A stretch of DNA of 64,000 nt. It comes from Clostridiaceae bacterium. Its GTDB lineage: Bacteria; Bacillota; Clostridia; Saccharofermentanales; DTU023. Numbering within the stretch: the first letter of the stretch is position 1; each line of letters begins with the position of its first letter. The notes under the pieces are model-generated. The model was given only the letters and a program-made list of their open reading frames with translations, was not told where the DNA came from and ran no database searches. The position numbers and the translations under genes are program-made. The stretch lies in the NCBI GenBank assembly GCA_012518795.1, contig JAAYRL010000019.1, positions 6,719 through 70,718 of the forward strand, in the 5' to 3' direction. Below, piece by piece: positions 3,575 through 63,491 of the stretch.

Positions 3575-3662
3575 TAATTAAACGCTATTTGTTTTTAATT
3601 AAACGCTATTTGTTTTTAATTAAACACTATTTGTTTTTAATTAAACACAATTTATTGTGATT
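3575..3662. repeat. 21-bp tandem repeat (about 3.5 copies) abutting the DUF4349 stop codon
   Basis: TAATTAAAC(G/A)CTATTTGTTTT units start at 3575, 3596, 3617 and 3638. The unit resembles the CDS end TTATTTGTTTTG at 3663. Confidence 0.8.
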
Positions 3663-4916
3663 TTATTTGTTTTGATTTTCCTTTTGTTCAAACTCTTGGT
3701 TCATAGTTTGATCACTGTTTTGATTTAATATTTGATCATTGTTTTGATTCATAGTTTGATCACTGTTTTGATTTAATATTTGATCACTGTTTTGATTTAA
3801 AGTTTGATCACTGTTTTGATTTAAAAATTGTTGATTTTCAATATACTTATCTTGAGGGAAACTTTGATCATATGCAACTGTTTGCGGATTATTTGTCATA
3901 AATGCCATCGCTTCAGCTTCTTGCTTTTGCTTTTTCGCCTTCTTACGTTTGCGATAAATTGCCAAAAGTATGAATAAAATCAATAAGAGCGGAATAATGA
4001 TCGGAGCAGATACCAGAATTCCGATTGCTAACCATTGAAAAAATGATACTACCGTACTAAGCACTGAGTTCCAACCGCTGCTTACCCAATATTTAAAATC
4101 GTCCCAAGTCATAGCAGAGAATTCAATTTCTCTTTTGCCGGATAGCGGTGCCTGTTTTTGCAAGAATTCAATTGATACATAGGAATAGTCTACCTGTGAA
4201 TCCCAGCGTTTGATCGATCCTTTAAGTAATTCAATTTCTTCAGTTAAATAGTCTATTTCTCCTTGAATATAGACCATATCTTCTATTTTCTTGGCATCAA
4301 GCAAAAATTCGTAGTATTTTTCCAATGATTTTTCAGCTGTGTCAAGTCTGATTGTTGCATCATAATAAGCATCTGTAATATCTTCTGCGTTTATTTTTAA
4401 ATAATTGACAATTTCAGTCTCGGAGATTTCTTCAATAAATTGATCCAAATTATCTGCCGGAACACCGAAATCAGCAGTTATTTGCAGTCTTGCATCGGTT
4501 TCACTACGATTAAGATTAGTCGCAAAGCCCTCATATTTTTCAACCAAGTCCAGAACGTTTTGATAGCTTTCTTCAACATCTTCACAACGCAATTCAACAT
4601 TACCATTTTTAATCAGTTTTCTTTGATTAGGCTCTGCTTCTTTTGTTCCTATACCAGGAGAATTTGCTTGTGGCTCTGCAGCTCTTTCTTCAGCAAGACC
4701 ATCGTATCCATATTCGTATTCGTAATCATATGCATCATCATAAGCCTCCATAGGAACGTCACTTTTATAGTTTCCTAAATCTGAAGTATCTTTTCGTGCT
4801 GAACTACTGCAACCCATTGCACTAAACACGATACTTAAAATAAAAATCAAATTTAATATAATTTTGATTTTATTAGTTTTATTAGAAGATTTAATTTTTC
4901 CAGAATAGTTTTTCAT
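3663..4916 (-). CDS. DUF4349-like lipoprotein with C-terminal TM helix and LNQNSDQT repeat tail
   Basis: 417 aa. It has a lipobox SAMGCSS, a central coiled-coil region resembling DUF4349, a TM helix and a basic stop-transfer segment. Five 8-aa repeats follow. A GGAGGAG RBS is present, and the start overlaps the ntpD end by 26 nt. Confidence 0.7.
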   Translation of the reverse strand: MKNYSGKIKSSNKTNKIKIILNLIFILSIVFSAMGCSSSARKDTSDLGNYKSDVPMEAYDDAYDYEYEYGYDGLAEERAAEPQANSPGIGTKEAEPNQRKLIKNGNVELRCEDVEESYQNVLDLVEKYEGFATNLNRSETDARLQITADFGVPADNLDQFIEEISETEIVNYLKINAEDITDAYYDATIRLDTAEKSLEKYYEFLLDAKKIEDMVYIQGEIDYLTEEIELLKGSIKRWDSQVDYSYVSIEFLQKQAPLSGKREIEFSAMTWDDFKYWVSSGWNSVLSTVVSFFQWLAIGILVSAPIIIPLLLILFILLAIYRKRKKAKKQKQEAEAMAFMTNNPQTVAYDQSFPQDKYIENQQFLNQNSDQTLNQNSDQILNQNSDQTMNQNNDQILNQNSDQTMNQEFEQKENQNK

Positions 4917-5902: not shown

Positions 5903-7306
5903 TTAATTCTTTTCTGTTCGAGAACGTTCATAAATTTCAGCACGATAATAACGAGAAATATATTGTTCATCAATTCTGGTTAATTCATTTTTCGGCAAAA
6001 TAGATAGCAAATCCCACCCCAATTCTAAGGTCTCTTCAATACTGCGATTAAGAGTAAATCCTTGAGAAATATAACGGGCTTCAAATTCATCAGAGAAACG
6101 AGCATAAATGCGATCCATATCACTTAATGCTTCCTCTCCTAAAATAATTTCAAGCTCTTTTGCCTCTTTACCGCGCGAATAGGCTGCGAACAATTGATTC
6201 ATAGTATCAGCATGGTCGGAACGGGTTCTCCCCTCGCCGATCGCTTCGTCTTTTAACCTCGACAATGATGGCAATACATCAATCGGCGGCTGAATTGCTC
6301 TGTTATGCAAGTCCCTGCTTAAGATAATCTGGCCTTCTGTGATATATCCTGTTAAGTCCGGTATCGGATGTGTTTTATCATCATCAGGCATGGTCAGAAT
6401 CGGCATTAAAGTTATTGAGCCTTTTTTATCTTTTAAGCGTCCGGCACGTTCATATATTTGGGCCAAGTCGGTATATAAATACCCGGGATAACCGCGACGG
6501 CCGGGCACTTCTTTTTTGGCAGCCGAAACTTCACGTAAAGCTTCTGCATAATAGGTAATATCGGTAAGAATAACCAAAACATGCATGTCCAACTCGAATG
6601 CCAAATACTCTGCCGTTGTCAGGGCAACCCGTGGAGTTGCGATTCTTTCAATTGCCGGATCATTCGCTAAGTTGATATACATTACCGATCTGGAAATAGC
6701 GCCTGTTTCACGCAAATCTTCAATAAAGAAGTTTGCATCTTCAAATGTTATGCCCATTGCAGCAAAAACAACCGCAAATTTTTCTGAATCATCCAACACC
6801 TTGGCTTGTCTGGCTATTTGTGCCGCAAGATTATTATGCGGTAAACCTGATCCGGAAAAAATCGGTAATTTTTGACCGCGGACCAAAGTATTCAACCCAT
6901 CAATTGCAGAAACCCCGGTTTGAATAAATTCATCCGGATATTCTCTGGCAGCCGGATTCATCGGCAAACCGTTGGTATCCATTGTGGCAACAGGAATAAT
7001 CTCCGGTCCGCCATCAATAGGTGTTCCTAATCCGTCAAATACTCGACCTAACATATCCGGTGAAACCGGCAGTTCCATACCATGACCCAAAAAACGAACT
7101 TTACTTTGATCTACATTTATACCTAAAGAACTTTCGAAAAGCTGAACCAGGACATCGGTACCGTTAACTTCCAGAACTTGGCATCGTCTGACTTCTCCAT
7201 TCGGTAATATTATTTCACCAAGTTCATCATAGGCAACATCTTTTACGTTTTGTACCAACATTAACGGACCGGCTATTTCTTCTATAGTGCGATATTCTTT
7301 CGACAT
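5903..7306 (-). CDS. ntpB: V-type ATP synthase subunit B
   Basis: 467 aa. It shows clear V/A-ATPase B homology ([45 protein letters not shown]). Confidence 0.95.
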
Positions 7307-9099: not shown

Positions 9100-9134
9100 T
9101 GTTATCCTCTATTATCAGCTTAATTCTAAAACAT

Positions 9135-9244
9135 TATTTAAAGTTATTATCTTCTTTATTTAAAGTTATTATCTTCTTTATTTAAAGTTATTATCTTCTT
9201 TATTTAAAGTTGTTATCTTCTTTATTTAAAGTCATTATCTTCTT
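9135..9244. repeat. 22-bp tandem repeat (4 intergenic copies plus the founding copy, which is the 3' end of the subunit F CDS)
   Basis: TATTTAAAGT.ATTATCTTCTT units start at 9135, 9157, 9179, 9201 and 9223. The last unit encodes ..EDNDFK-stop of the gene ending at 9222. Confidence 0.9.
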
Positions 9245-9557
9245 TTAAAAGATCTATACCTATAGCTTTATTCACCATTTCATGCAAATAGTTCATAGCA
9301 AATTGTTTTTTGCTGCGATTTGAAGGAATCATAATTATTGCAGGTTCAATTTTCTCTTTATAATTTTCAATAATTGCAGGATTCTTTTCAGCTAAATCTT
9401 CTGTGACAAATATTAAACCATATTGCTTTTCGGATAATTCTTCAATTTTCCCATAAGCTTCAATCGGATCCTCAGTTATCACGACGGTCATTCCTAAGCC
9501 GCGAAAACCCAAAACACTATCAATATCTCCGATAACTGCTACCTTGACCAAATGCAT
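9222..9557 (-). CDS. V-type ATP synthase subunit F
   Basis: 111 aa. The segment VAVIGD.DSVLGFRGLG.. is typical of subunit F, and its operon position between C and A fits. Confidence 0.85.
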   Translation of the reverse strand: MHLVKVAVIGDIDSVLGFRGLGMTVVITEDPIEAYGKIEELSEKQYGLIFVTEDLAEKNPAIIENYKEKIEPAIIMIPSNRSKKQFAMNYLHEMVNKAIGIDLLKEDNDFK

Positions 9558-12038: not shown

Positions 12039-14027
12039 TTATTCATCATTTTTTTTGATCTTCAAATATTTCGTTTTATATTTTAAAGGCTTGAAAAACC
12101 ATCCGCCACCTTCAAAAAATTGTCCGAAAAATTCAACATATTGCAAACGACTGGAATGTACATATGCCGAAAGTCCCGAGAGTGCCAAATTCAAAAGATG
12201 CCCACCGATCAAAATAACCACGGCAAAAAACCAACCGATTATTCCGCCTGACACCATACTTGCTAGAAAGTTTATAACAGTTGCAATTACACTGGTAGCC
12301 AGTACCAATGCCAATACTCTGGTATAAGACAGAATATCACCCAGATAATTGACTACTCCATACAGTCCGCCGATCCCAGAAATCAAACGCGAAAAAATGT
12401 TTTTCTTTTCTCGGCCGGCAAATAACATTACGATTGCAGCACCGACAAGTGCCAGCCATTTACCGACTTCACCGACGTCAAATGTGCTTATATTAAGTGA
12501 TGATCCTCCAAGCAATAGACCTAAACCGATAATTATTAAAAACCAGGGAATAACATCAAAAAACACATTAGAAATCTTTCCGAATTTTATTTCATTAATG
12601 ATTTTCATTATCATGCCGCCAAATAGATGAATCACTCCAAAAATCATGCTCCAAATTAATAATTTTTGCGGTTCATCCATCGGATTAAACCATAAACAAG
12701 GGAATGTAATTCTGTTGTCGCTCATCACAGTTAGCATATCTCCGAAGAAACCACCGAAAACAAATCCCCACAAAGTAGAGGAAATTCCACAAAGAAACAA
12801 CATTCGCACTAACTGACCACTTTCGGAAGAGGTGTCTATTTTTGCTTTCCAAAGTAAATAGGCACAACCAATAGTTAACAGTAAACCGTATCCGACATCG
12901 CTTAACATCATTCCAAAAAACAGGAAACTGAAAATAGCCACTCCCGGTGTGGGATCAATTTCTTTGGTTGATGGAGCACCGAACATTTCAAGAATAGTTT
13001 GAAAAGCACCGGCAAAAGGTTTGTTTTTTAATAAAATCGGATATTCATCTTCGGGTCCCAGCTCAATTAGTTCAACAAAAACTGTGAAATCATCTTCTAG
13101 ATTTTGCTTGACTTTACGTGAATCTTTGCGAGGAATATAACCTTCCAAATAAAAGGTATAAAGACTGTCTTCAGGTATTTTACTGGCAGAATAATATTCT
13201 AAAGTTACTGTGTAATAATCCGATAATAAATAAAAGTCCAAACGTTTTGCAGCAATTGACTTCATCGTTGTTTCAAGTTCAATCATGGTTGAATCAATTT
13301 TCTTGATTTTGCGTTCATTAGATCGATAAATTTGATTAGGCGTACCTGATTTTTCAATCGGTAAATAATTAAAATCGTACTGCTTCAACAATTGGTTGAT
13401 TGCTAATTCATGTTCACGTAATGCTACAATTGCAGTTAAATCAAAAGTTTCACCCGATTCCAAAATAAGAATTGCCGTTTCAGCTAGAGAAAGTTCAGTT
13501 AACTCCTGTTCCAAATCTGATACTGCGGATTTCTCCAAGCGACCGAGAAAAATTAAAGTGCGTTGTGTTGAGGTTTGTTGCAAATCGATTTCAACCTTAC
13601 GCCAGTCATTTAAAATATCCTGTTCACGTTGAATTTGTTCTCGTTCAGCTGCTAAATCTATCTTGCGTTCTTCGGTTAACTTCAACAGATCAAACAAATC
13701 TAAAAACTCTTTTTCACGATCTTTTACCATTAATAAATCGTCCAGAGAAATTTTTTTGTCTGTAGATTCTTGCGGAACATTAGCATATTTATTTTCAAGT
13801 GTTTGAATTACAGAATTTAGTTGAGTTTGATTTATCAAAATTTCTGCTTCTTTTTTCTGCAATGCGAGCCTCTGTTCGGTTTCATCAACTTGACTCGAAG
13901 ATTCCGAGTTGAGAACACGAGTATCGATTAATTCAACCACTCCTTCTTTTTGTAAAAATTGTAATACAGTGGCCTTATCTCTACGCAAACCCAATATTTT
14001 GATTTTGTCCATTTCAAGAATTGCCAA
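12039..14027 (-). CDS. ntpI: V-type ATP synthase subunit I (a-like stator/channel)
   Basis: 662 aa. It has a soluble coiled-coil N-terminal half and a polytopic C-terminal half containing ..LSYTRVLAL... Confidence 0.9.
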   Translation of the reverse strand: MAILEMDKIKILGLRRDKATVLQFLQKEGVVELIDTRVLNSESSSQVDETEQRLALQKKEAEILINQTQLNSVIQTLENKYANVPQESTDKKISLDDLLMVKDREKEFLDLFDLLKLTEERKIDLAAEREQIQREQDILNDWRKVEIDLQQTSTQRTLIFLGRLEKSAVSDLEQELTELSLAETAILILESGETFDLTAIVALREHELAINQLLKQYDFNYLPIEKSGTPNQIYRSNERKIKKIDSTMIELETTMKSIAAKRLDFYLLSDYYTVTLEYYSASKIPEDSLYTFYLEGYIPRKDSRKVKQNLEDDFTVFVELIELGPEDEYPILLKNKPFAGAFQTILEMFGAPSTKEIDPTPGVAIFSFLFFGMMLSDVGYGLLLTIGCAYLLWKAKIDTSSESGQLVRMLFLCGISSTLWGFVFGGFFGDMLTVMSDNRITFPCLWFNPMDEPQKLLIWSMIFGVIHLFGGMIMKIINEIKFGKISNVFFDVIPWFLIIIGLGLLLGGSSLNISTFDVGEVGKWLALVGAAIVMLFAGREKKNIFSRLISGIGGLYGVVNYLGDILSYTRVLALVLATSVIATVINFLASMVSGGIIGWFFAVVILIGGHLLNLALSGLSAYVHSSRLQYVEFFGQFFEGGGWFFKPLKYKTKYLKIKKNDE

Positions 14028-14331
14028 GTAGATTCACTATCCCTTCTAAAACCTGATCGGCTACCCGACTTTTCTCTTCAGAACTGATTTCAGGTAAAGT
14101 TAAATTTGCTAAGCTTTGCTCTAAATCCTGATTCGACTTGGTTTCCGCATTAATAACAGCAGTTCGCAACTTTTGATCTGCCTCTGCCCGAACTGTTTCA
14201 AGCTGTTTAATCAACTTGCCGTTCATATACTCGAGCTTGCTTTTTGCATCTATTTCTGCTGCCTGAACAATCTGTTCGGCTTGCAGTTCTGCTTCTTTTA
14301 TCTGTTGGACAAAATCTATATCTATACTCAC
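14014..14331 (-). CDS. V-type ATP synthase subunit G/H-like (E. hirae NtpF-like) peripheral stalk protein
   Basis: It is the first gene of the operon and is charged and coiled-coil. The ORF track starts at 14376, but a GTG at 14331 preceded by GAGG at 5-6 nt is the more plausible start. Confidence 0.6.
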   Translation of the reverse strand: MSIDIDFVQQIKEAELQAEQIVQAAEIDAKSKLEYMNGKLIKQLETVRAEADQKLRTAVINAETKSNQDLEQSLANLTLPEISSEEKSRVADQVLEGIVNLLGNS

Positions 14332-14544
14332 ATTAACCTCATCTATTTCGAGAAGTACCATAAGTAATAATAACATAACCTTTATTTTAATAAAAAAACT
14401 ATTTATTAAATTTTATTATCAAATTTTATTATCAAATTTTACGTTTTTCTTCTTTGCTCTCAACCTTGGAAATTTACTCAGAAATTGAGAATCTCAAATC
14501 GAATTTTTCACAGCATTAAATTCTGAGCAGAAATCGGTATTGGC

Positions 14545-15175
14545 ATTTGGCTTGCACACTTTTTAAGGTTGTCCCGGATTTTCGCGGTACAGGCTTAAAT
14601 AGTGTGCATGCCCTTTGGTTAAATCGACTTTTCTGAGTTGCATATGCACACTTTTTAAGGTTGTCCCGGATTTTCACTGTACAGGCTTAAATAGTGTGCA
14701 TGCCCCTCGGTTAAATCGACTTTTTCGAGTTGCATATGCACACTTTCTAAGCTTGTCCCGGATTTTCGCGGTACAGGCTTAAATAGTGTGCATGCCCCTT
14801 GGTTAAATCGACTTTTTCGAGTTGTATATGCACACTTTTTAAGCTTGTCCCGGATTTTCGCGGTACAGGCTTAAATAGTGTGCATGCCCCTCGGTTAAAT
14901 CGACTTTTCTGAGTTGCATATGCACACTTTTTAAGCTTGTCCCGGATTTTCGCGGTACAGGCTTAAATAGTGTGCATGCCCCTCGGTTAAACCGACTTTT
15001 TCGAGTTGCATATGCACACTTTCTAAGCTTGTCCCGGATTTTCGCGGTACAGGCTTAAATAGTGTGCATGCCCTTTGGTTAAATCGACTTTTCTGAGTTG
15101 CATATGCACACTTTTTAAGGTTGTCCTGGATTTTCACTGTACAGGCTTAAATAGTGTGCATGCCCTTTGGTTAAA
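14545..15175. repeat. Array of seven 92-bp direct repeats, each containing a hairpin with a stem of about 21 bp
   Basis: GCACAC unit anchors lie at 14554, 14646, 14738, 14830, 14922, 15014 and 15106, an exact 92-bp period. The arms are ATGCACACTTT(T/C)TAAG(G/C)TTGT and ACAGGCTTAAATAGTGTGCAT. The loop is CCCGGATTTTC(GC/AC)(G/T)GT. Confidence 0.95.
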
Positions 15176-15208
15176 TTTAATTTTAATATTTATATATATT
15201 ATTTCATA

Positions 15209-17764
15209 TTATTTTTTACTAATTACAATTTGATCATCTTGAACGTCAATTAATGCAGTATCACCTTCCGCAATAATATCATCCAGCATCGCTTCCGAGA
15301 ATTTGTCTTCTATCGAGGATTGAATCAATCGACGTAACGGTCTGGCACCGTATTGCGGCTCATAACCGTTCTTTACCAGCCATTCTTTTGCTTGATCGGT
15401 GACTTCAATTTGGATACCGATATCAGCAATTCTTTTTTCAAGTTGTCGCAGCATAATATTCACAATTTGTAACAATGCTTCTTGAGACAACATCGTAAAG
15501 AAAATCAGTTCATCAATCCTATTCAGGAATTCAGGAGGAAAAGTATTTTTGACTTCTTCCATAATTAATTCTTTAGCTTCTTCATAACTTCTGCCACCAT
15601 ATAGATTTTGGTCAATTTGAGCTGTATCTTCTTGATCATCATTTACAGGTGCTGCAAAACCGATCTTTCCACCACTACTTGAAGTTAAAAGACGTGCTCC
15701 GATGTTTGATGTCATGATTATTATCGTATTCTTAAAATCAATTGTCCGCCCTTGACCGTCAGTTAAACGACCATCTTCCAAGACTTGTAATAAAACATTG
15801 AATACATCCGGATGAGCTTTTTCAATTTCATCAAATAATATCACCGTATATGGTCTTCTTCTGACTTTTTCTGTTAACTGACCACCTTCTTCGTAACCGA
15901 CATAACCCGGAGGCGATCCGATCAGCTTAGAGACGTCAAATTTTTCCATATATTCAGACATATCGATTCTGACCATTGCATTTTCATCACCGAACATTGT
16001 ATCTGCTAAAGCTTTCGCCAGTTCAGTTTTACCGACACCTGTCGTACCTAAGAAAACGAAAGAACCTGTTGGACGATTAGGATTTTTTAAACCCAGTCTG
16101 CCCCTGCGAATTGCTTTTGCAACTGCCGTCACTGCTTCATCTTGACCGATAACTCGTTTTTTGAGTTCAGCTTCCAGATTTTTCATTTTTTCATGATCAT
16201 CTTCAGTCAACTTCATTACAGGAATTCCGGTCCAAGAGGCAACAATTTCCGCAATATCATCAACACTGATTTCCGGTCGTTCCGTCACTTCTGCTTTATC
16301 TTTTTCAGCTATTGCTGCATCAATCTCTGATTTTAATTTGTTTTCTTCTTGCAGTAATTTGGCAGCTTGTTCGAATTCTTCTTTTTGTACTGCTGTTTCT
16401 TTTTCCTGAATAATCTTTGCCAAGGCTTCCTCTTTATCCTTCAAGTCTTGTGGTTCTTCCGAAATACTCATCCTAATTTTCGATGAAGCTTCATCAATTA
16501 AGTCAATTGCTTTATCCGGTAAAAATCTATCTGTAATATACCTGCTGGATAATTTAACCGCCTCTTCAATTGCTTCATCAGTAATTACAACTTTATGATG
16601 ATCTTCATATTTTTTTCTTAAACCGCTCAAAATGCGAATTGATTCTTCTTCACTCGGTTCATCAATCATTACAGGTTGAAATCTTCTGGCTAAAGCAGCA
16701 TCTTTTTCTATGTTTTTTCTATATTCATCAATAGTTGTTGCCCCGATTACCTGCATTTCGCCTCTTGCCAGCATCGGTTTCAAGATATTTGAAGCGTCCA
16801 TGGCACCTTCAGATGCTCCTGCGCCGATTATAGTATGCAATTCATCAATAAACAGAATTACATCACCGGCTTTTACTGCCTCATCAATGCCGTTTTTCAG
16901 ACGCTCTTCGAATTCACCTCGGTATTTTGCACCGGCCAACATACCGGAGAGATCAAGTGAAAAGAGCCGTTTGTTTTTCAAAAGATCAGGTACATCATCT
17001 GCGGCAATTTTTTGAGCTAAGCCTTCAGCAATAGCAGTTTTGCCTACACCGGGCTCACCTATCAGTACCGGATTGTTTTTGGTTCTGCGACAAAGAATTT
17101 GCATTGAACGCATTATCTCTTCATCACGACCAATAATCGGATCGAATCCGTCATTTCTTGCCACTTCCGTAAAATCTATCCCAAATTGATCCAAAGTCGG
17201 TGTTGAACTGTTTCTTGTACCGGCCTGTCCGGATGAACTGGATTTACCTGTTAAATCCGGTCCTTCAGGATTATTTGCCAGCTGGCCGAACAGGCTGCCG
17301 AAGAAAGAACTGCCAAAACTTTGAATAATCTCGGCATAAAGTTTTTGAATACTAATATTAGCACCACGCAGAATTCTAACTGCAACACTATCTCCTTCTC
17401 TTAAAATTCCTAATAACAGATGCTCAGGCTCTACCGCAGGTACATTCCGTGCATTTGCTTCTCTGGCAGCCAAGTTCAGAACCTGCTTCGTTCTGGGCGT
17501 CATCATCTGGTAAATCTGATCGCCACTCAGCTTAATATCACCAGAAAAATCTTTTGGTTCTTGTTTATTGAATTGATTCAAGACTTCCGTTATATTTTCG
17601 ACAGTTAAATTATACTTTTTCAGAATTTGACCGGCTTTCCCATCTTCCACCAGAATCCCTTTTAATAAATGCTCCGTTCCAATATATTCTACTCCGTAAG
17701 ATCTTGCTGTTTTATATGCTTCGGCAAGCACTTTACCGGAACGTTCAGATAACTTTATCATCAT
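15209..17764 (-). CDS. clpC: ATP-dependent Clp protease ATP-binding subunit ClpC
   Basis: It has Clp_N repeats and two AAA+ modules ([16 protein letters not shown]). The ORF track starts at 17785. An ATG at 17764 with a GGAGG RBS is the likelier start. Confidence 0.95.
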
Positions 17765-17791
17765 ATCTATTTCCTCCATTTTCACATATTA

Positions 17792-18131
17792 TTAATGTTT
17801 TATTATTAATTTCAAATTGTTTTTATTTTTTGTTTTAATCCTTTTAAATTTTAGATAGTTTTAAATCATAGTTAATGGTCTTTATTAATTCCAAATTGTT
17901 TTTATTTTTTTGTTTTAATCCTTTTAAAATATAGAAAGTTTTAAATCATAGTTAATGGTCTTTATTAGTTCCAAATTGTTTTTACTTTTTTGTTTTAATC
18001 CTTTTAAATTTTAGATAGTTTTAAATCATAGTTAATGTTCTTTATTATTTCCAAATTGTTTTTACTTTTTTGTTTTAATCCTTTTAAATTTTAAATAGTT
18101 TTAAATCATTGTTAATGGTCTTTATTATTTA
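17792..18131. repeat. 80-bp tandem repeat (4 intergenic copies) whose unit begins with a copy of the mcsB 3' end
   Basis: TTAATG(G/T)T.TTTATTA units start at 17792, 17872, 17952, 18032 and 18112. The unit at 18112 is the real mcsB terminus (NNKDH-stop). Confidence 0.9.
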
Positions 18132-37398: not shown

Positions 37399-38052
37399 AT
37401 GGCATTCTGTAGTAAATGTGGAGTTAATTTTGCCGAAGGCACTACGATTTGTCCCAGTTGTGGAGCATCAGTGGGGGATTCTCTCCAACAACCGCAGGCT
37501 CCCCAACAATCGCAGGCTTACCAAGAACCGCAGGCTCATCAACAACCGCAGACTTATCAAGAACCGCAGGCTTATCAAGAACCGCAGGCTTATCAACAAT
37601 CGCAAGCTTATCAACAACCGCAGGCTCATCAACAATCGGCGAATACGCAGAGTTCCGGTTTCAGTGAAAAGTTTAGTTCGCTTAACGAAACTGCAGATAC
37701 AACAGATCAATTTGATCCGCAAGATATTCAAAATAACAAAGCAATGGCAATTCTTGCTTACATAGGTATCTTGGTGTTAATTCCGCTGTTTGCATCAAAG
37801 GAAAGCAAATTCACTCGTTTCCATGTCAATCAGGGATTGATACTGTTCATCTTGGAAATTGCTTATGGTGTTGTATATGGTATTTTTAGCGCTATCATAT
37901 TCGCAATTTCTTGGCGTTTGCTCTTTCTCTTAAGTATCATTGGATTTTTCGGCATTATTTTTCTTGTTCTTTCGATTATGGGAATTATAAATGCAGCAAA
38001 CGGAAAAGCAAAAGAACTCCCTGTAATCGGGAAGTTTAAAATATTACAATAA
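37399..38052 (+). CDS. Zinc-ribbon / Q-rich repeat / DUF4870-like membrane protein
   Basis: The N-terminus has CSKCG..CPSCG. About eight PQAYQE-type hexapeptide repeats follow. The C-terminus has a membrane domain with two TM helices. Confidence 0.7.
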   Translation: MAFCSKCGVNFAEGTTICPSCGASVGDSLQQPQAPQQSQAYQEPQAHQQPQTYQEPQAYQEPQAYQQSQAYQQPQAHQQSANTQSSGFSEKFSSLNETADTTDQFDPQDIQNNKAMAILAYIGILVLIPLFASKESKFTRFHVNQGLILFILEIAYGVVYGIFSAIIFAISWRLLFLLSIIGFFGIIFLVLSIMGIINAANGKAKELPVIGKFKILQ

Positions 38053-59143: not shown

Positions 59144-59412
59144 TAAAATTCCTTTAGTTTGAAATTCATCTGCATTTGTTAATTCAAATTGATTTCTTCA
59201 AATATTTCTTTGCTGAGATAAATTCAAAGAAAGCAAAGAAGGGGCTGGCTCAGAATTTTGGGCTGTGCAAATTCTCATTTGTACAACGCCGAATAGTGAG
59301 CAGTTTTCATGGTTGAGCCACCGGTTTCTGAGGCATCCCTTCTTATACCTACGGACCAAATGGACAACACAAAAATATCCTCTCAAAATTGTTGAATATT
59401 GTTGAATAAAAT

Positions 59413-60540
59413 CTAATCGTAGCGCGAGGCTCTTCCGCCGTCACCTCGCCCTTCTTCCATCATTCCGAACGTCTCAACGAAAAAGGTTCGGAATCTAAGA
59501 TTGTATTTGTCCGCAATAATATCGAGTGCATCTTCAACAATATCCGCCATGACATGTGAATCGGCAACCGCACGCGCGTTAATGACAAGTGAAATTGCAC
59601 TGTAGGGCTGTGTCAATTTTTGGTCATATTCAACATCATAGTCGATGCCGATCAGGCTCGCTTTAACAAAATCGTTACCCTCACCTGCTGCGAATGCTTT
59701 CAAATGCGGAACGTTACTATCACTTACTTTCAGACCCTTGCGAACTTGATTGAAAAGGTCTGCAATAACTTCATTAAAATCAATATTTTTATCATTTCTT
59801 TCTTCAAAGAACACACGGCGATTATACCAGCTCAACAAATTTTCAGCGGCAATAAACGCATCTGAGCCGTAACCGATTTCGCGATGGACGGCTGCAGCTT
59901 TGTGGGTCAGCAGGTATTCAACAACTTCCTCAACGCCTTCACCTGTAAGAGCGGACATCGTAAAGACCGGCGTATCCGGGAAAGAAGCTTTGATAAACTC
60001 AACACGTTTTTCTTTTTCCTCCGCACTGATCAAATCTACTTTATTTAACACAATGATATCGGCTTCAGCCATTTGTGCTTCAAGTAAGAAACGCATCTCC
60101 GCCGGCAGATTGATTTGTTCCGCTTCAGGCATCAGCATGCGCATACGTTCGGGGTCGACAATACAGGTGAAAGGCATCAAGTCAAACTCTCCGGGCCTTC
60201 GCTCTTTAAGCTGAATATAAACGTGTTCAAGCGCCCCGATGCCGCATCCGGGAATATCGGACATGATAACCGTAGCACCTTGATCAACCAATTGATTGAG
60301 CTTATCAACAAGATTTTCATGCTGATAACAAATACAGTCGCCTGCAATCTGTGTTGTCAATATATCAGTCGTTGCTGTAAAGCTGGCATCAACAATATTA
60401 TCTGCACCGAGGTCATTGACGAGAATGGCCGCTTTTCCATAACGTTTGTCTATTATATTTCCGAATGCAATCATTGAAGTCGTTTTTCCTGCTCCCAAGA
60501 ACCCGCTTGTTACCATATACTTTGCTTTTGCTTGTGACAT
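59413..60540 (-). CDS. G3E-family (CobW/HypB/UreG-like) P-loop GTPase with an uncharacterised C-terminal domain of about 180 aa
   Basis: It has the Walker A GFLGAGKTT, a DIPGCG segment, the guanine-specificity motif NKVD and a GDCICY remnant of the CxCC metal motif. The start was moved to the ATG at 60540, which has a GGAGG RBS at 7 nt. Confidence 0.75.
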   Translation of the reverse strand: MSQAKAKYMVTSGFLGAGKTTSMIAFGNIIDKRYGKAAILVNDLGADNIVDASFTATTDILTTQIAGDCICYQHENLVDKLNQLVDQGATVIMSDIPGCGIGALEHVYIQLKERRPGEFDLMPFTCIVDPERMRMLMPEAEQINLPAEMRFLLEAQMAEADIIVLNKVDLISAEEKEKRVEFIKASFPDTPVFTMSALTGEGVEEVVEYLLTHKAAAVHREIGYGSDAFIAAENLLSWYNRRVFFEERNDKNIDFNEVIADLFNQVRKGLKVSDSNVPHLKAFAAGEGNDFVKASLIGIDYDVEYDQKLTQPYSAISLVINARAVADSHVMADIVEDALDIIADKYNLRFRTFFVETFGMMEEGRGDGGRASRYD

Positions 60541-60722
60541 ATTAATTCCTCCGTTTATCAATTAATTATTTCCTCTGTTTTTATCTCCTGTTTTTATCCT
60601 CAGTTGTTATCCTCTGCTGATATCTTCTTTTATGTTATCATGTAAGACTTTTCCCCCGTTAGATATCTTCTTCAAAAACTATAAGCATATCGTTTTCATG
60701 GATTCGATATCTTTTTCCCAAG

Positions 60723-62060
60723 CTATCGGTAAAGGGTTTTTCCGGTATCTGAACTCAAGTTATAACTGCAAAATGGAATGAGTTTGCCTTCCGAAGAAAC
60801 TACTTGAATATAGCAACGGCGAAGTCTGTTCAGATCCATCGTATACGCATCCTGAAAGGCCATGCCGGAAATCGCAAGGGTTGTATTCTGCCGCTCCATT
60901 AAAAATTTGTCCAAGTATGAGACATCGATAGAACTTGTTTTTTCTGAAGGAACAATCTCTTCGGGAATCGTCCATTTACTCGCAACGACCATTCTGGCTT
61001 GATCACTTGATATACCGCAACTGCACCCTTCGTCACTACTGAGAAGTGTCCATTTGCCATCTTTCACAATATAATTCGCATGAAATCCGCAGAGCGGATG
61101 TTCGGCATTGGAAGGCAAAAAGTCAGTCTTTTTCAGTTTTCTGTCTGTCTGCTGTTCAATTATATTAAACAACTCGGGGAATGTGATTCGTGCATCTTCT
61201 CCTGCAGAATATCTGCCAAAAAGAGAAATCGGTTGGAAGTGAACTCCGCGCACAACAGGCATGTTGTCAGCAGCAAAGCTCAGTATAGCTCCAAGTTGAT
61301 CATCATTTGCACCCTTCATTACTGTCGGTACAAGAACAACCCCGATATGAGCTTCCCTGCAACGTTGCACTGCACGGAACTTGTCTTCAATGACAGAGCG
61401 TCCTCGCAGCGCAAAGTTTGCTTTATCGGAAAAGCCGTCGAATTGCAAAAACACAGTTGAAAGTCCTGCTTCTTTAAGTTCTTCTATATATCCAATCTCA
61501 TTAGCTATGCGCAAACCGTTCGTATTAAGTTGAAAAAATGAAAATCCCTTTTCTTTTCCTAAACGGATGATTTCAGGGAGATCATTACGCATCGTCGGTT
61601 CGCCGCCGGAGAGCTGGATATTGAATGGGCCGCCATTATCCATCAGCATATCATACCAACCGGCAATCGTAGTAAGATCTGGATCTTCGACAGTGTGTTC
61701 ACCGCCGGAAGAAGCAAAGCAGATTGGACAGCCAAGATTACAGCGCTGTGTCACCTCAATTAATACACAACAAGTTTTCTGCAAGTGGTTTTCGCAGATA
61801 CCGCATCCGTATGGACAATCACTTTTGAAATCCGGTTCATCGACAACACGAGTCTTCCATTTAAGAAAGCCAAGCGGATTGTCCCACACAAAAACACAAA
61901 AATCACCATGATCGGGACAAATCTTTTCAAGAAAGACTCCATCTGTACCCGCCGTATAACGTGCGTCAATCCTTTTCAGGCATACAGGACAAACACTCTT
62001 CGTTTCAGACAAAAGAACACGGTTGCCCTTTCCGACTTCGCGACTTGGTGTAGTTTTCAT
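60723..62060 (-). CDS. Radical SAM enzyme with an N-terminal rubredoxin/zinc-ribbon-like module and an extra Cys cluster
   Basis: It has the CX3CX2C motif CNLGCPIC. The N-terminus has CPVC...CPDH followed by CPYGCGIC..H. C-terminal cysteines are present (CSC, FCSYN). Confidence 0.8.
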   Translation of the reverse strand: MKTTPSREVGKGNRVLLSETKSVCPVCLKRIDARYTAGTDGVFLEKICPDHGDFCVFVWDNPLGFLKWKTRVVDEPDFKSDCPYGCGICENHLQKTCCVLIEVTQRCNLGCPICFASSGGEHTVEDPDLTTIAGWYDMLMDNGGPFNIQLSGGEPTMRNDLPEIIRLGKEKGFSFFQLNTNGLRIANEIGYIEELKEAGLSTVFLQFDGFSDKANFALRGRSVIEDKFRAVQRCREAHIGVVLVPTVMKGANDDQLGAILSFAADNMPVVRGVHFQPISLFGRYSAGEDARITFPELFNIIEQQTDRKLKKTDFLPSNAEHPLCGFHANYIVKDGKWTLLSSDEGCSCGISSDQARMVVASKWTIPEEIVPSEKTSSIDVSYLDKFLMERQNTTLAISGMAFQDAYTMDLNRLRRCYIQVVSSEGKLIPFCSYNLSSDTGKTLYR

Positions 62061-62184
62061 CTAAAGTACCTCTTTCTTCTTTGATTTTAGCAGAAAGTAA
62101 CTCTGCGTTCTTTTCCTTTCCTCAAACTTACTTTGCATGTCTAAAATAGCTTGCCTTTATTCAGTTGACAAATACACCAGGTTT

Positions 62185-62445
62185 TCCGAGTTGGATTTGC
62201 ACACTTTCTAAGGTTATTCGAGAATTTAGGCAGTACAACCTTAAATTCTGTGCAAAACCTTTAGTAAAACCAGGTTTCCCGAGTTGGATATGCACACTTT
62301 CTAAGGTTATCCGACAAATTCATGGTACAACTTTAAATAGTGTGCATATATATTGAAAAAATTGGGTTTGCCAGGCTGCCCATGCACACTTTCTAAGCTG
62401 ATGCAGGATTTCCTCGGTCCAACCTTAAAAAGTGTGCATATATTA
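62185..62445. repeat. Three diverged copies of the same hairpin repeat family of about 92 bp seen at 14545-15175
   Basis: GCACAC anchors lie at 62199, 62292 and 62383. The arms TGCACACTTTCTAAG and CTTAAA.AGTGTGCA are conserved while the loops are diverged. They share the CGAGTTGGAT.TGCACAC lead-in. Confidence 0.85.
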
Positions 62446-62660: not shown

Positions 62661-63491
62661 TTAGAACGAGTGGCCGCCGGAGCTCCCGCCGCCTCCGCCT
62701 CCTCCGCCTCCGCTGTCGCTTCCGCCGCCGGATGATGAATCGGAGTGGCGTTTCTTTTTTTGTGATATCATCTTCGAATTTACATTTTTGATAAAATCGG
62801 TTTTGTCCTTGTAACCACCTTTAATTACCTGATTCTTGTCAATCTTCTTAATCGAAACATTCCTCTTCCTGTTAAATAACACTCGCAAGAAGTTCAACAA
62901 GAGCCCGAGGCAAGCAGCCATGAGTACATTTGTCACATGTCTCATCGGTGTAGATATCTTTCCACCCTTCAGGAGTATGAGAACTTGGTTGAAAGCCTCG
63001 TTTGCACATTCAAAATACTTCTCGTTGCTAGCATATTTATAAATATTATCTGCAATCTCGTTTGATCTTGTGTTGTTTATCGTCTTTGCAAATTTACCGT
63101 CCGAGTAGAACTGAATCATTCTGTTGTCCATGTCGATCAGAAATAGTGTTCCCGACTGCTCGCCAAAAAGTGTGAAATATATGCTTTTTGCATATTTCTC
63201 CGCAGAATAATCATTTTCGAGGATGGTAATAAAAGCAGCATGCCCGTACTCTGTCACGGTTTTCATATTCTCAAGCAAGTGCTCCTTTTCACTTTCGCTG
63301 AGAAGCTCTGCAGAATCGTCGATTACGACCATATTGCCGTTATCGGCAGTATACTTTAGCATTGTCTCCCCAATTGTATCCCCAATTGTCTCTCCAATTG
63401 TCTCACCAGACGCGAAAGCGGGAATTGCGGAATTAAACATAAGCATAAATGCAAGCAAAATTATTGCTGCATATCTTATTTTATTTCCCAT
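62661..63491 (-). CDS. TPM-domain (YgcG-like) protein with signal peptide, TM helix and Gly/Ser-rich tail
   Basis: It has a signal peptide ending AFASG and GETI repeats. A TPM-like core (VVIDDSAELLSESEKEHL...) is followed by a TM helix. The C-terminus reads SSSGGGSDSGGGGGGGGGSSGG. Confidence 0.7.
   Translation of the reverse strand: MGNKIRYAAIILLAFMLMFNSAIPAFASGETIGETIGDTIGETMLKYTADNGNMVVIDDSAELLSESEKEHLLENMKTVTEYGHAAFITILENDYSAEKYAKSIYFTLFGEQSGTLFLIDMDNRMIQFYSDGKFAKTINNTRSNEIADNIYKYASNEKYFECANEAFNQVLILLKGGKISTPMRHVTNVLMAACLGLLLNFLRVLFNRKRNVSIKKIDKNQVIKGGYKDKTDFIKNVNSKMISQKKKRHSDSSSGGGSDSGGGGGGGGGSSGGHSF

Follow-up and report, generated by a model that had tools for sequence, protein, structure and literature searches.

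The stretch of DNA analysed here (the window, 64,000 nt; positions 6,719 to 70,718 of contig JAAYRL010000019.1, assembly GCA_012518795.1) comes from a Clostridiaceae bacterium of the Saccharofermentanales and carries, at 14552-15176 on the forward (+) strand, an array of 6.8 tandem units of 92 bp between clpC and the genes of a V-type ATPase. Open reading frame (ORF) and protein-domain evidence placed clpC on the reverse (-) strand at 15209-17785 (alternative start 17764), as the final gene of a ctsR-mcsA-mcsB-clpC operon of the kind typical of Firmicutes. The V-type ATPase operon, also on the - strand, opens with a 120-aa ORF (14014-14376; ORF and domain scan) that has no Pfam match and is followed by subunits I, c, AC39, F, A, B and D. 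Both neighbours had been named correctly in an earlier interpretation made from the letters of the window (the sequence-only reading). Its statement that the array occupies the entire gap between them did not hold: 33 nt separate the clpC stop from the array, and 177 nt are left before the first V-ATPase ORF. This remainder contains a degenerate hairpin related to the array (14474-14551), a promoter-like site and a 13-bp repeat in three copies. The promoter-like site for the V-ATPase operon (TTGAGA, 16 nt, TAAAAT; 14436-14463, - strand), recognised by consensus match only (10 of 12 positions), comes after the array in the direction of transcription; the array is in the 3′ untranslated region of clpC and upstream of that site. 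The 13-bp repeat (unit TTATCAAATTTTA, 14403-14441) overlaps the -10 hexamer of the same site.

Tandem Repeats Finder (TRF) reported a single array at 14553-15176 with a period of 92, 6.8 copies, 94% matches, zero indels and a score of 1080; the extent of 14552-15176 used here also draws on unit alignment, folding and an inverted-repeat scan. Each unit combines an imperfect hairpin of 57 nt with a linker of about 35 nt, and the orientation of the array was set by the linker, the order on the + strand being 5′ arm, loop, 3′ arm and then linker. In register, the units lie at 14552-14643, 14644-14735, 14736-14827, 14828-14919, 14920-15011 and 15012-15103, followed by a truncated one at 15104-15176 (73 nt). 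The sequence-only reading had described seven head-to-tail units with a 92-bp period; the period, without indels, stands, while the copy number is 6.8, the seventh unit being cut at 73 nt. The stem, loop and linker sequences that it quoted were correct on re-reading and folding. Mean column identity across the units was 93%, and the 56-nt hairpin core occurred six times at three mismatches or fewer against 0.00 expected (0 in 100 shuffles). The array is a genuine, non-chance feature.

Folded as RNA, the unit reached -40.6 kcal/mol on the + strand (z -7.5) and -34.1 kcal/mol on the - strand (z -5.9). The + strand stem is composed of 9 + 11 + 3 bp and includes a single T.T mismatch and a single G.U pair. 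The inverted-repeat scan returned arms of 21-25 nt alternating with spacers of 8/16 nt and 34 nt. Unit 4 may serve as an example: according to the fold and the alignments, its 57-nt imperfect hairpin (14829-14885, +) has the arms TGCACACTTTTTAAGCTTGT / ACAGGCTTAAATAGTGTGCA with the T.T mismatch, apical CCG/CGG pairs close an 8-nt loop, and the linker of about 35 nt follows at 14886-14919 (+). A mini-hairpin within the linker, AAA(T/C)CG(A/G)C...(C/T)(T/C)G(A/G)G, is weak and poorly conserved between arrays. The G+C content of the array was 44%, compared with 23-31% in the flanking spacer, and a tRNA scan of the array region found no tRNA-like gene.

Searches beyond the locus revealed a dispersed family, of which the sequence-only reading contained neither the spread over many loci and genomes nor a second array in the window itself. 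An exact 20-mer matched eight Joint Genome Institute (JGI) biogas contigs, equivalent to five further loci, and had no match in 185,579 GTDB species genomes. A degenerate two-arm pattern run against GTDB genomes retrieved 21 loci in four metagenome-assembled genomes (MAGs): two assigned to Clostridiaceae bacterium (biogas plants), one long-read Saccharofermentanales bacterium (GCA_050951845.1) and one binned as Bacteroidales. With an nhmmer profile of the unit we collected 29 non-redundant arrays of 1-7 units at ~25 distinct intergenic sites, the period being 91-93 bp in almost all of them and 102 bp in one. The family is shared by a minimum of five related genomes, all from uncultured Clostridia of biogas reactors (Saccharofermentanales). 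The second window array, one of the 29 and identified by the profile and by alignment (62174-62439, +), is diverged; it comprises a partial linker and three hairpins (periods 93 and 92) and falls in the spacer that separates gene 60723-62060 (-) from gene 62661-63491 (-). Among the tandem repeats of the window, the 92-bp repeat alone recurs at other loci. Alignment of three units to plasmid and phage collections by blastn gave no match, nor did the two-arm pattern in viral contigs; a 17-mer produced two single chance matches in viral contigs, with no unit behind either. A literature search on a 92-bp repeat or on clostridial extragenic palindromes found no description of this family.

Three of the arrays (related contigs and loci being cited here by L numbers: L030 3897-4160, L035 3-215 and L036 2757-2956) lie on contigs of the Bacteroidales-labelled MAG (JAAYSS01) from the same biogas study. 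G+C is 35-45%, and one of the three is the array with the 102-bp period, which results from 10 nt inserted into the linker; these occurrences may reflect misbinning or transfer. In short-read MAGs, several arrays sit at contig ends (L021 end, L017 start, L035 start, L036 end), so the 92-bp repeat probably breaks assemblies; in the long-read MAG an orthologous array is intact (L031).

All 29 arrays are intergenic. Measured against a non-overlapping ORF set, the nearest gene presents its 3′ end to 33 array sides (median gap 60 nt) and its 5′ end to 16 (median gap 167 nt; p = 4e-4 in Mann-Whitney test), although these positional counts are not fully independent, because some of the 29 arrays are orthologous pairs between MAGs. 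Settings with both sides known comprised nine convergent, nine tandem and two divergent ones, and in the tandem settings the unit occurs in either orientation relative to the genes. Several gaps measure 0-10 nt, meaning that the array occupies the entire convergent spacer, for instance at L034 and L025. No recurrent neighbouring gene family was found around the arrays, and only orthologous loci clustered. The same distribution is seen in the BOX, RUP and SPRITE repeats of pneumococci, which are over-represented between convergent genes and extend operons at their 3′ side, and in which it was interpreted as a sign that the repeats are tolerated and probably mobile (PMC3049150).

Four sites of the AS21 MAG have an orthologue in the long-read MAG or in a JGI contig, and all of them carry arrays, with at least 5 vs 6, 6 vs 3, 4 vs 2 and 7 vs 5 units, the first three of these pairs being between two MAGs; the arrays remain at orthologous sites between species while their copy numbers differ. 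The genes flanking orthologous arrays share 80-94% protein identity and ~70% of synonymous third positions. Identity within arrays was 96% for the arms, 90% for the apical part and 85% for the linker; between orthologous arrays the corresponding values were 86-97%, 60-75% and 43-80%, and between array consensuses 89%, 55% and 54%. By these comparisons, the drift of loop and linker is close to the neutral rate, both being homogenised inside each array, and the arms are kept well above the neutral level. The homogenisation that the sequence-only reading had proposed for the window copies is borne out (identity of 85-96% within arrays vs ~54% between arrays for loop and linker). Drift between arrays combined with homogenisation within them amounts to concerted evolution, the outcome to be expected if 92-bp units recombine unequally or undergo slippage.

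With respect to the linker, the apical loop is found in either orientation, as CCCGGATTTTCGCGG in the window array, CCCGAAAATCCGCGG in L033 and GACCGCGAAAATCC in L009 and L013, which fits the dynamics of a DNA palindrome better than an RNA gene. The inverted form (a ‘flip/flop’) was located at L009 228-592, L013 1548-1818 and L033 6745-7351, and hybrid units combining both apical forms exist, for instance unit 2 of L009. Flip/flop and hybrids together suggest inversion or template switching within the palindrome.

We regard the array as one locus of a lineage-specific, previously undescribed family of small interspersed intergenic palindromic repeats similar to REP/BIME, BOX or MIRU elements, a reading to which we would give a probability of roughly 0.65. 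Under the mechanism that we propose, the arms would be the recognition target of a protein or of a copying machinery, most likely as a DNA (or RNA) hairpin with the conserved T.T mismatch, in a way that would resemble REP hairpins and their RAYT nuclease. New sites would stem from rare transposition-like or recombination events, and arrays would gain and lose units through slipped-strand mispairing or through unequal recombination of the 92-bp units.

An alternative is that the arrays serve the host as platforms to which proteins bind, on DNA that is double-stranded or cruciform (for a nucleoid, gyrase or IHF-type site, a function proposed for BIMEs, or for a transcription insulator), with the 92-bp spacing kept for that purpose and not as part of a selfish element. 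Sequence conservation of the arms well above the neutral level, a period of 91-93 bp in nearly all arrays and genomes and the retention of arrays at orthologous sites between species agree with such a function, and BIMEs are described as binding IHF and gyrase (PMC2817692). On the other hand, copy number is free to vary from 1 to 7, one syntenic relative is entirely without the array, no candidate binding protein is linked to the arrays, and the arms lie ~40 bp apart centre to centre, which is too distant for a usual dimeric site unless the hairpin is extruded. We consider a host-serving platform of this kind unlikely.

The ends of the arrays bear on a further alternative. Arrays begin inside the linker and finish with a hairpin, and half-sites of a more degenerate, related hairpin, here called T-type (CTGCTCACTTTTC..CTGCAAAT / ATTTGCA.AGC..GAAATTCTGAGC), stand at one end or at both in about nine of the 29, the others being without them or cut by contig ends. 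T-type halves stand in inverted orientation on both sides of the array in L009 and L013, on one side in L021, L031 and the window (14474-14531), and on the other side in L017, L022, L024 and L032; in L031 and the window an entire T unit lies ahead of the first unit. The degenerate T-type unit at the V-ATPase end of the window array (14474-14551, +), assigned by homology and shuffles, is made up of half-sites at 14477-14499 and 14504-14530 and a linker-like tail at 14531-14551, and now folds no better than shuffled sequences. Homology connects it with end modules found in other arrays and with a solo T-type hairpin elsewhere in the window, GCTCACTATTCGGCGTTGTACAAAT gaga ATTTGCACAGCCCAAAATTCTGAGC (59245-59305, - strand; same evidence). 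The latter has a U-rich tail on the - strand; the stop codon of gene 59413-60561 (-) precedes it by ~108 nt, and it may act as that gene's terminator. T modules are homologous to each other (0 of 1000 shuffles scored as high) and weakly so to the unit hairpin, which is of equal length (10 of 2000 shuffles as high). T may be either a terminal unit that escaped from homogenisation, or its halves may be the terminal inverted repeats of a BOX- or MITE-like composite (MITEs being miniature transposable elements with inverted repeats).

The second of these options corresponds to a composite MITE-like transposon in which the T-type half-sites are terminal inverted modules around the tandem module and an insertion sequence transposase from another place in the genome acts in trans. 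Inverted half-sites on both sides of L009 and L013 and on one side at other loci, a solo T hairpin without internal units and the mutual homology of T modules from different loci speak for it, and the pneumococcal BOX element is built alike, boxA and boxC bracketing boxB. However, about two thirds of the arrays are without a T module, the resemblance of T to a diverged unit hairpin leaves room for an escaped unit, no target-site duplication was seen at array ends, and no transposase lies near any array. Of the ‘concatemerised MITE’ listed among the possible roles in the sequence-only reading, this leaves related inverted half-sites around some arrays and a weak case otherwise, and we judge a composite transposon to be about as improbable as the binding platform.

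Comparison of the clpC locus with its relatives concerns the role of the array as a transcript end. The closest ClpC homologues belong to Saccharofermentanales MAGs, the nearest being 93-94% identical; in these, clpC is followed by other genes (LRR_5/SH3 proteins) and an unrelated terminator hairpin, with no array. In L038, L044 and L045, the genes downstream of clpC encode large LRR_5/SH3-domain proteins in place of the V-ATPase operon. Upstream of ctsR, HTH genes are found in the closest relatives vs an isocitrate/isopropylmalate dehydrogenase-family gene in the window organism. The clpC region has thus undergone rearrangement. The terminator hairpin of the 93-94% relatives was also considered as an ancestor of the T-type hairpin and rejected, as 242 of 1000 shuffles were equally similar. 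A more distant relative, L040 (ClpC 80% identical), has kept the order of clpC followed by the V-ATPase genes; its 133-bp gap is free of an array and holds a canonical terminator, a 14-bp stem with a T-run behind it (-20.2 kcal/mol, z -6.5).

In the window, a terminator scan of the - strand over 14000-15500 detected no canonical terminator between clpC and the V-ATPase genes, and with the promoter-like site located beyond the array, the array holds the position of the clpC operon terminator. The array hairpins have no T-run after the stem on either strand, the next letters being AUAUGCAAC (- strand) and GCCCCU (+ strand), which sets them apart from ordinary intrinsic terminators; neither a promoter-like nor a terminator-like site was found inside the units. 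An array of stacked Rho-independent terminators, as the sequence-only reading had offered, could draw on the coincidence with the clpC terminator site of a relative and on the many arrays that fill convergent gaps completely (e.g. L034 and L025), yet the missing T-runs, the empty - strand scan and the presence of arrays in antisense and on the promoter sides of genes make it very unlikely.

The clpC locus was represented in four independent metagenome assemblies, with 7, 7, 6 and 2 units. The six-unit version lacks exactly unit 4, and the two-unit version consists of unit 1 and unit 7.

Structure tests were based on an alignment of 76 distinct units from 27 arrays. RNAalifold returned an empty consensus structure on this alignment, and pairs were then counted on explicit structures. 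In the named structure 82% of cells were paired, a level reached in 499 of 500 within-column shuffles of the 3′ letters, and covariation, which the sequence-only reading had singled out as a check on genomic copies, was at or below that of shuffles, with no excess. The lower stem GCACAC.TTTTAAG / CTTAAA.AGTGTGC is almost invariant and its changes are uncompensated (C13 in 16 units, C12 in 5), pairs 17-44 and 20-41 are unpaired in most units, and two alternative linker hairpins reached just 66-68% pairing, again with no excess covariation. About three quarters of the units retain the T.T mismatch. Pairing potential stems from a single 15-18-nt box of which the two arms are conserved, mutually inverted copies, and nothing in the alignment points to selection on RNA structure. 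The linker-defined forward strand folded better in 12 arrays and the reverse strand in 17; the + strand had been entertained as a functional RNA strand on the hint of G.U pairs and of C/T variation opposite G in the window array, and was rejected for want of a strand bias over the 29 arrays. Rfam at gathering thresholds gave no family match over the window, as the sequence-only reading had anticipated in recognising no known RNA family, and at E up to 10 over the array region only spurious sub-threshold eukaryotic microRNA and small nucleolar RNA models appeared.

That each unit encodes a structured small RNA, or that the array is a cis-regulatory or processed RNA (the ‘processed sRNA array’ of the sequence-only reading), is the least probable of the explanations weighed, since the very stable predicted hairpin and the four variable linker positions of the window array, all C/T opposite G on the + strand, are outweighed by pairing no better than shuffles and no covariation among the 76 units, a + strand advantage absent from other arrays, both array orientations relative to genes, both loop orientations relative to the linker, no promoter inside the unit, no RNAalifold consensus structure and no Rfam match. 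Arms conserved by sequence, with neither covariation nor strand preference, argue against a small RNA gene and for a repeat with sequence-recognised arms.

Several observations weigh against an interspersed repeat family with the mechanism and locus role suggested here. The conservation of the arms could instead reflect a host DNA-binding site. No target-site duplication was seen at the array ends, and no mobilising enzyme was found, the search for a RAYT having covered 479 kb, a small fraction of each genome. The comparison of a filled with an empty site comes down to one clean case, between distant relatives. The differences of 7, 6 and 2 copies at the clpC locus may represent assembly collapse, given that both shorter versions come from k141 MEGAHIT contigs and are missing whole units. 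A role in termination or stabilisation has against it the hairpins without a U-tract and the occurrence of arrays in both orientations.

The seven stable hairpins of the window array, once transcribed, would form a 3′-end barrier or attenuator for the clpC transcript, which would shield it from 3′-5′ exonucleases and limit read-through. Such a barrier would be a side effect used by the host and not the reason for the existence of the family. We hold this transcript-end role at the clpC locus to be possible, though short of even odds. A bolder version has the near-invariant arms TGCACACTTTTTAAG / CTTAAATAGTGTGCA, with their T.T mismatch, recognised by a dedicated protein of the lineage, for example a domesticated HUH/Y1 or other hairpin-specific nuclease or binder, in a system like that of REP and RAYT whose arrays would act as bidirectional transcript-end or insulator modules replacing terminators. 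This version is speculative and on the unlikely side, a little less so than the platform or the composite transposon; if true, it would be a REP/RAYT-like host-element system outside the groups in which REPs have mainly been described.

The window contains other tandem repeats. An 80-bp repeat (17803-18127; 4.1 copies, 93% matches, 15-16% G+C) fills the 327-nt gap between mcsB and clpC within the ctsR operon and is also found in contigs L001, L003 and L004 of the same species; the two genes overlap in relatives or have at most ~110 nt between them. Locus-specific, A+T-rich tandem repeats with periods of 21-72 bp are unusually abundant in the intergenic DNA of this organism (49 TRF rows in 64 kb; 289-449, 2216-2416, 3575-3825, 9134-9245 and others), and related contigs are alike in this, for example with 74-, 71-, 63- and 88-bp repeats in L010, L012 and L035. 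Unlike the 92-bp family, these A+T-rich repeats do not recur at other loci. An 18-bp repeat at 37486-37635 (8.3 copies, CAACAACCGCAGGCTTAT) may encode a hexapeptide repeat, its period being a multiple of three.

The 92-bp family adds a well-defined interspersed repeat family to the uncultured, industrially relevant Saccharofermentanales of anaerobic digesters, and could be used as a variable-number tandem repeat (VNTR) marker for strain typing, provided that the copy-number differences are real. It also offers a clean case for the question of what keeps palindromic repeats conserved in sequence, with constrained arms next to a loop and linker that drift and homogenise, and an example of such a repeat at the expected terminator position between a stress operon and an ATPase operon.

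Among the known systems nearest to the family are REP/BIME elements, with which it shares extragenic imperfect palindromes with a conserved mismatch, clustering at conserved spacing, enrichment behind genes, sequence conservation within a lineage, lack of coding capacity and proposed effects on mRNA 3′ ends. In REP-bearing genomes the RAYT (HUH/Y1) gene is usually flanked by REPs; tblastn with E. coli RayT over the 479 kb searched here gave noise only (E above 2). The hairpin of the 92-bp family measures 57 nt with arms of 21-25 nt, whereas REPs are 20-40 bp long, and its host is a clostridial lineage, whereas REPs are those of Proteobacteria. REP palindromes have a conserved GTAG or CGTC tetranucleotide at one end (PMC3733652), but the 92-bp unit consensus is without GTAG/CTAC or CGTC/GACG, its hairpin ends being (A/T)TGCACAC...GTGTGCA(A/T)G. 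Successive REPs of BIMEs alternate in orientation (PMC2817692), whereas all hairpins of the 92-bp array have the same polarity with respect to the T.T mismatch side and the linker. Out of the four roles listed in the sequence-only reading, ‘REP/BIME-like’ comes nearest, with the alternating orientation, the GTAG/CGTC tag and the size left unmatched.

BOX elements (boxA-boxB(n)-boxC), with whose modular layout the family agrees in part, resemble it in their Firmicute host, their modular build with an internal module in variable tandem number, the sometimes inverted end modules and the excess between convergent genes, BOX being transcribed as operon extensions (PMC3049150). They differ in having no apparent sequence relation to it; in the 92-bp family the repeated module itself bears the long hairpin, and end modules occur in just about a third of the arrays. 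The MIRU minisatellites of mycobacteria (Supply et al.) are reportedly oriented with the operon, with short overlapping reading frames and no long hairpin. Tandem units of 40-100 bp, dispersed over dozens of intergenic loci and differing in copy number from locus to locus, are common to MIRUs and the 92-bp family, but the latter shows no bias in orientation and its unit length cannot be divided evenly by 3. STAR repeats of Staphylococcus aureus and NIMEs of Neisseria are short direct repeats or 20-bp dRS3 inverted repeats with variable segments between them. Relatively G+C-rich short repeats at fixed spacing and in variable copy number within the intergenic DNA of an A+T-rich genome are common ground, while the 92-bp family has a 57-nt hairpin and a homogenised linker.

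In line with the sequence-only reading, the array is not CRISPR: the linkers of an array share 85% identity and have homologues in other arrays, with no unique spacers and no recurrent neighbouring gene. Unlike a MITE, the family showed no direct duplication at array ends, no transposase near arrays and no matches in plasmid, phage or viral sequences. CRISPR, a MITE with target duplication, an Rfam RNA and an intrinsic terminator are excluded on the features tested. The 92-bp family works like REP/BIME, BOX and MIRU repeats and belongs to none of them.

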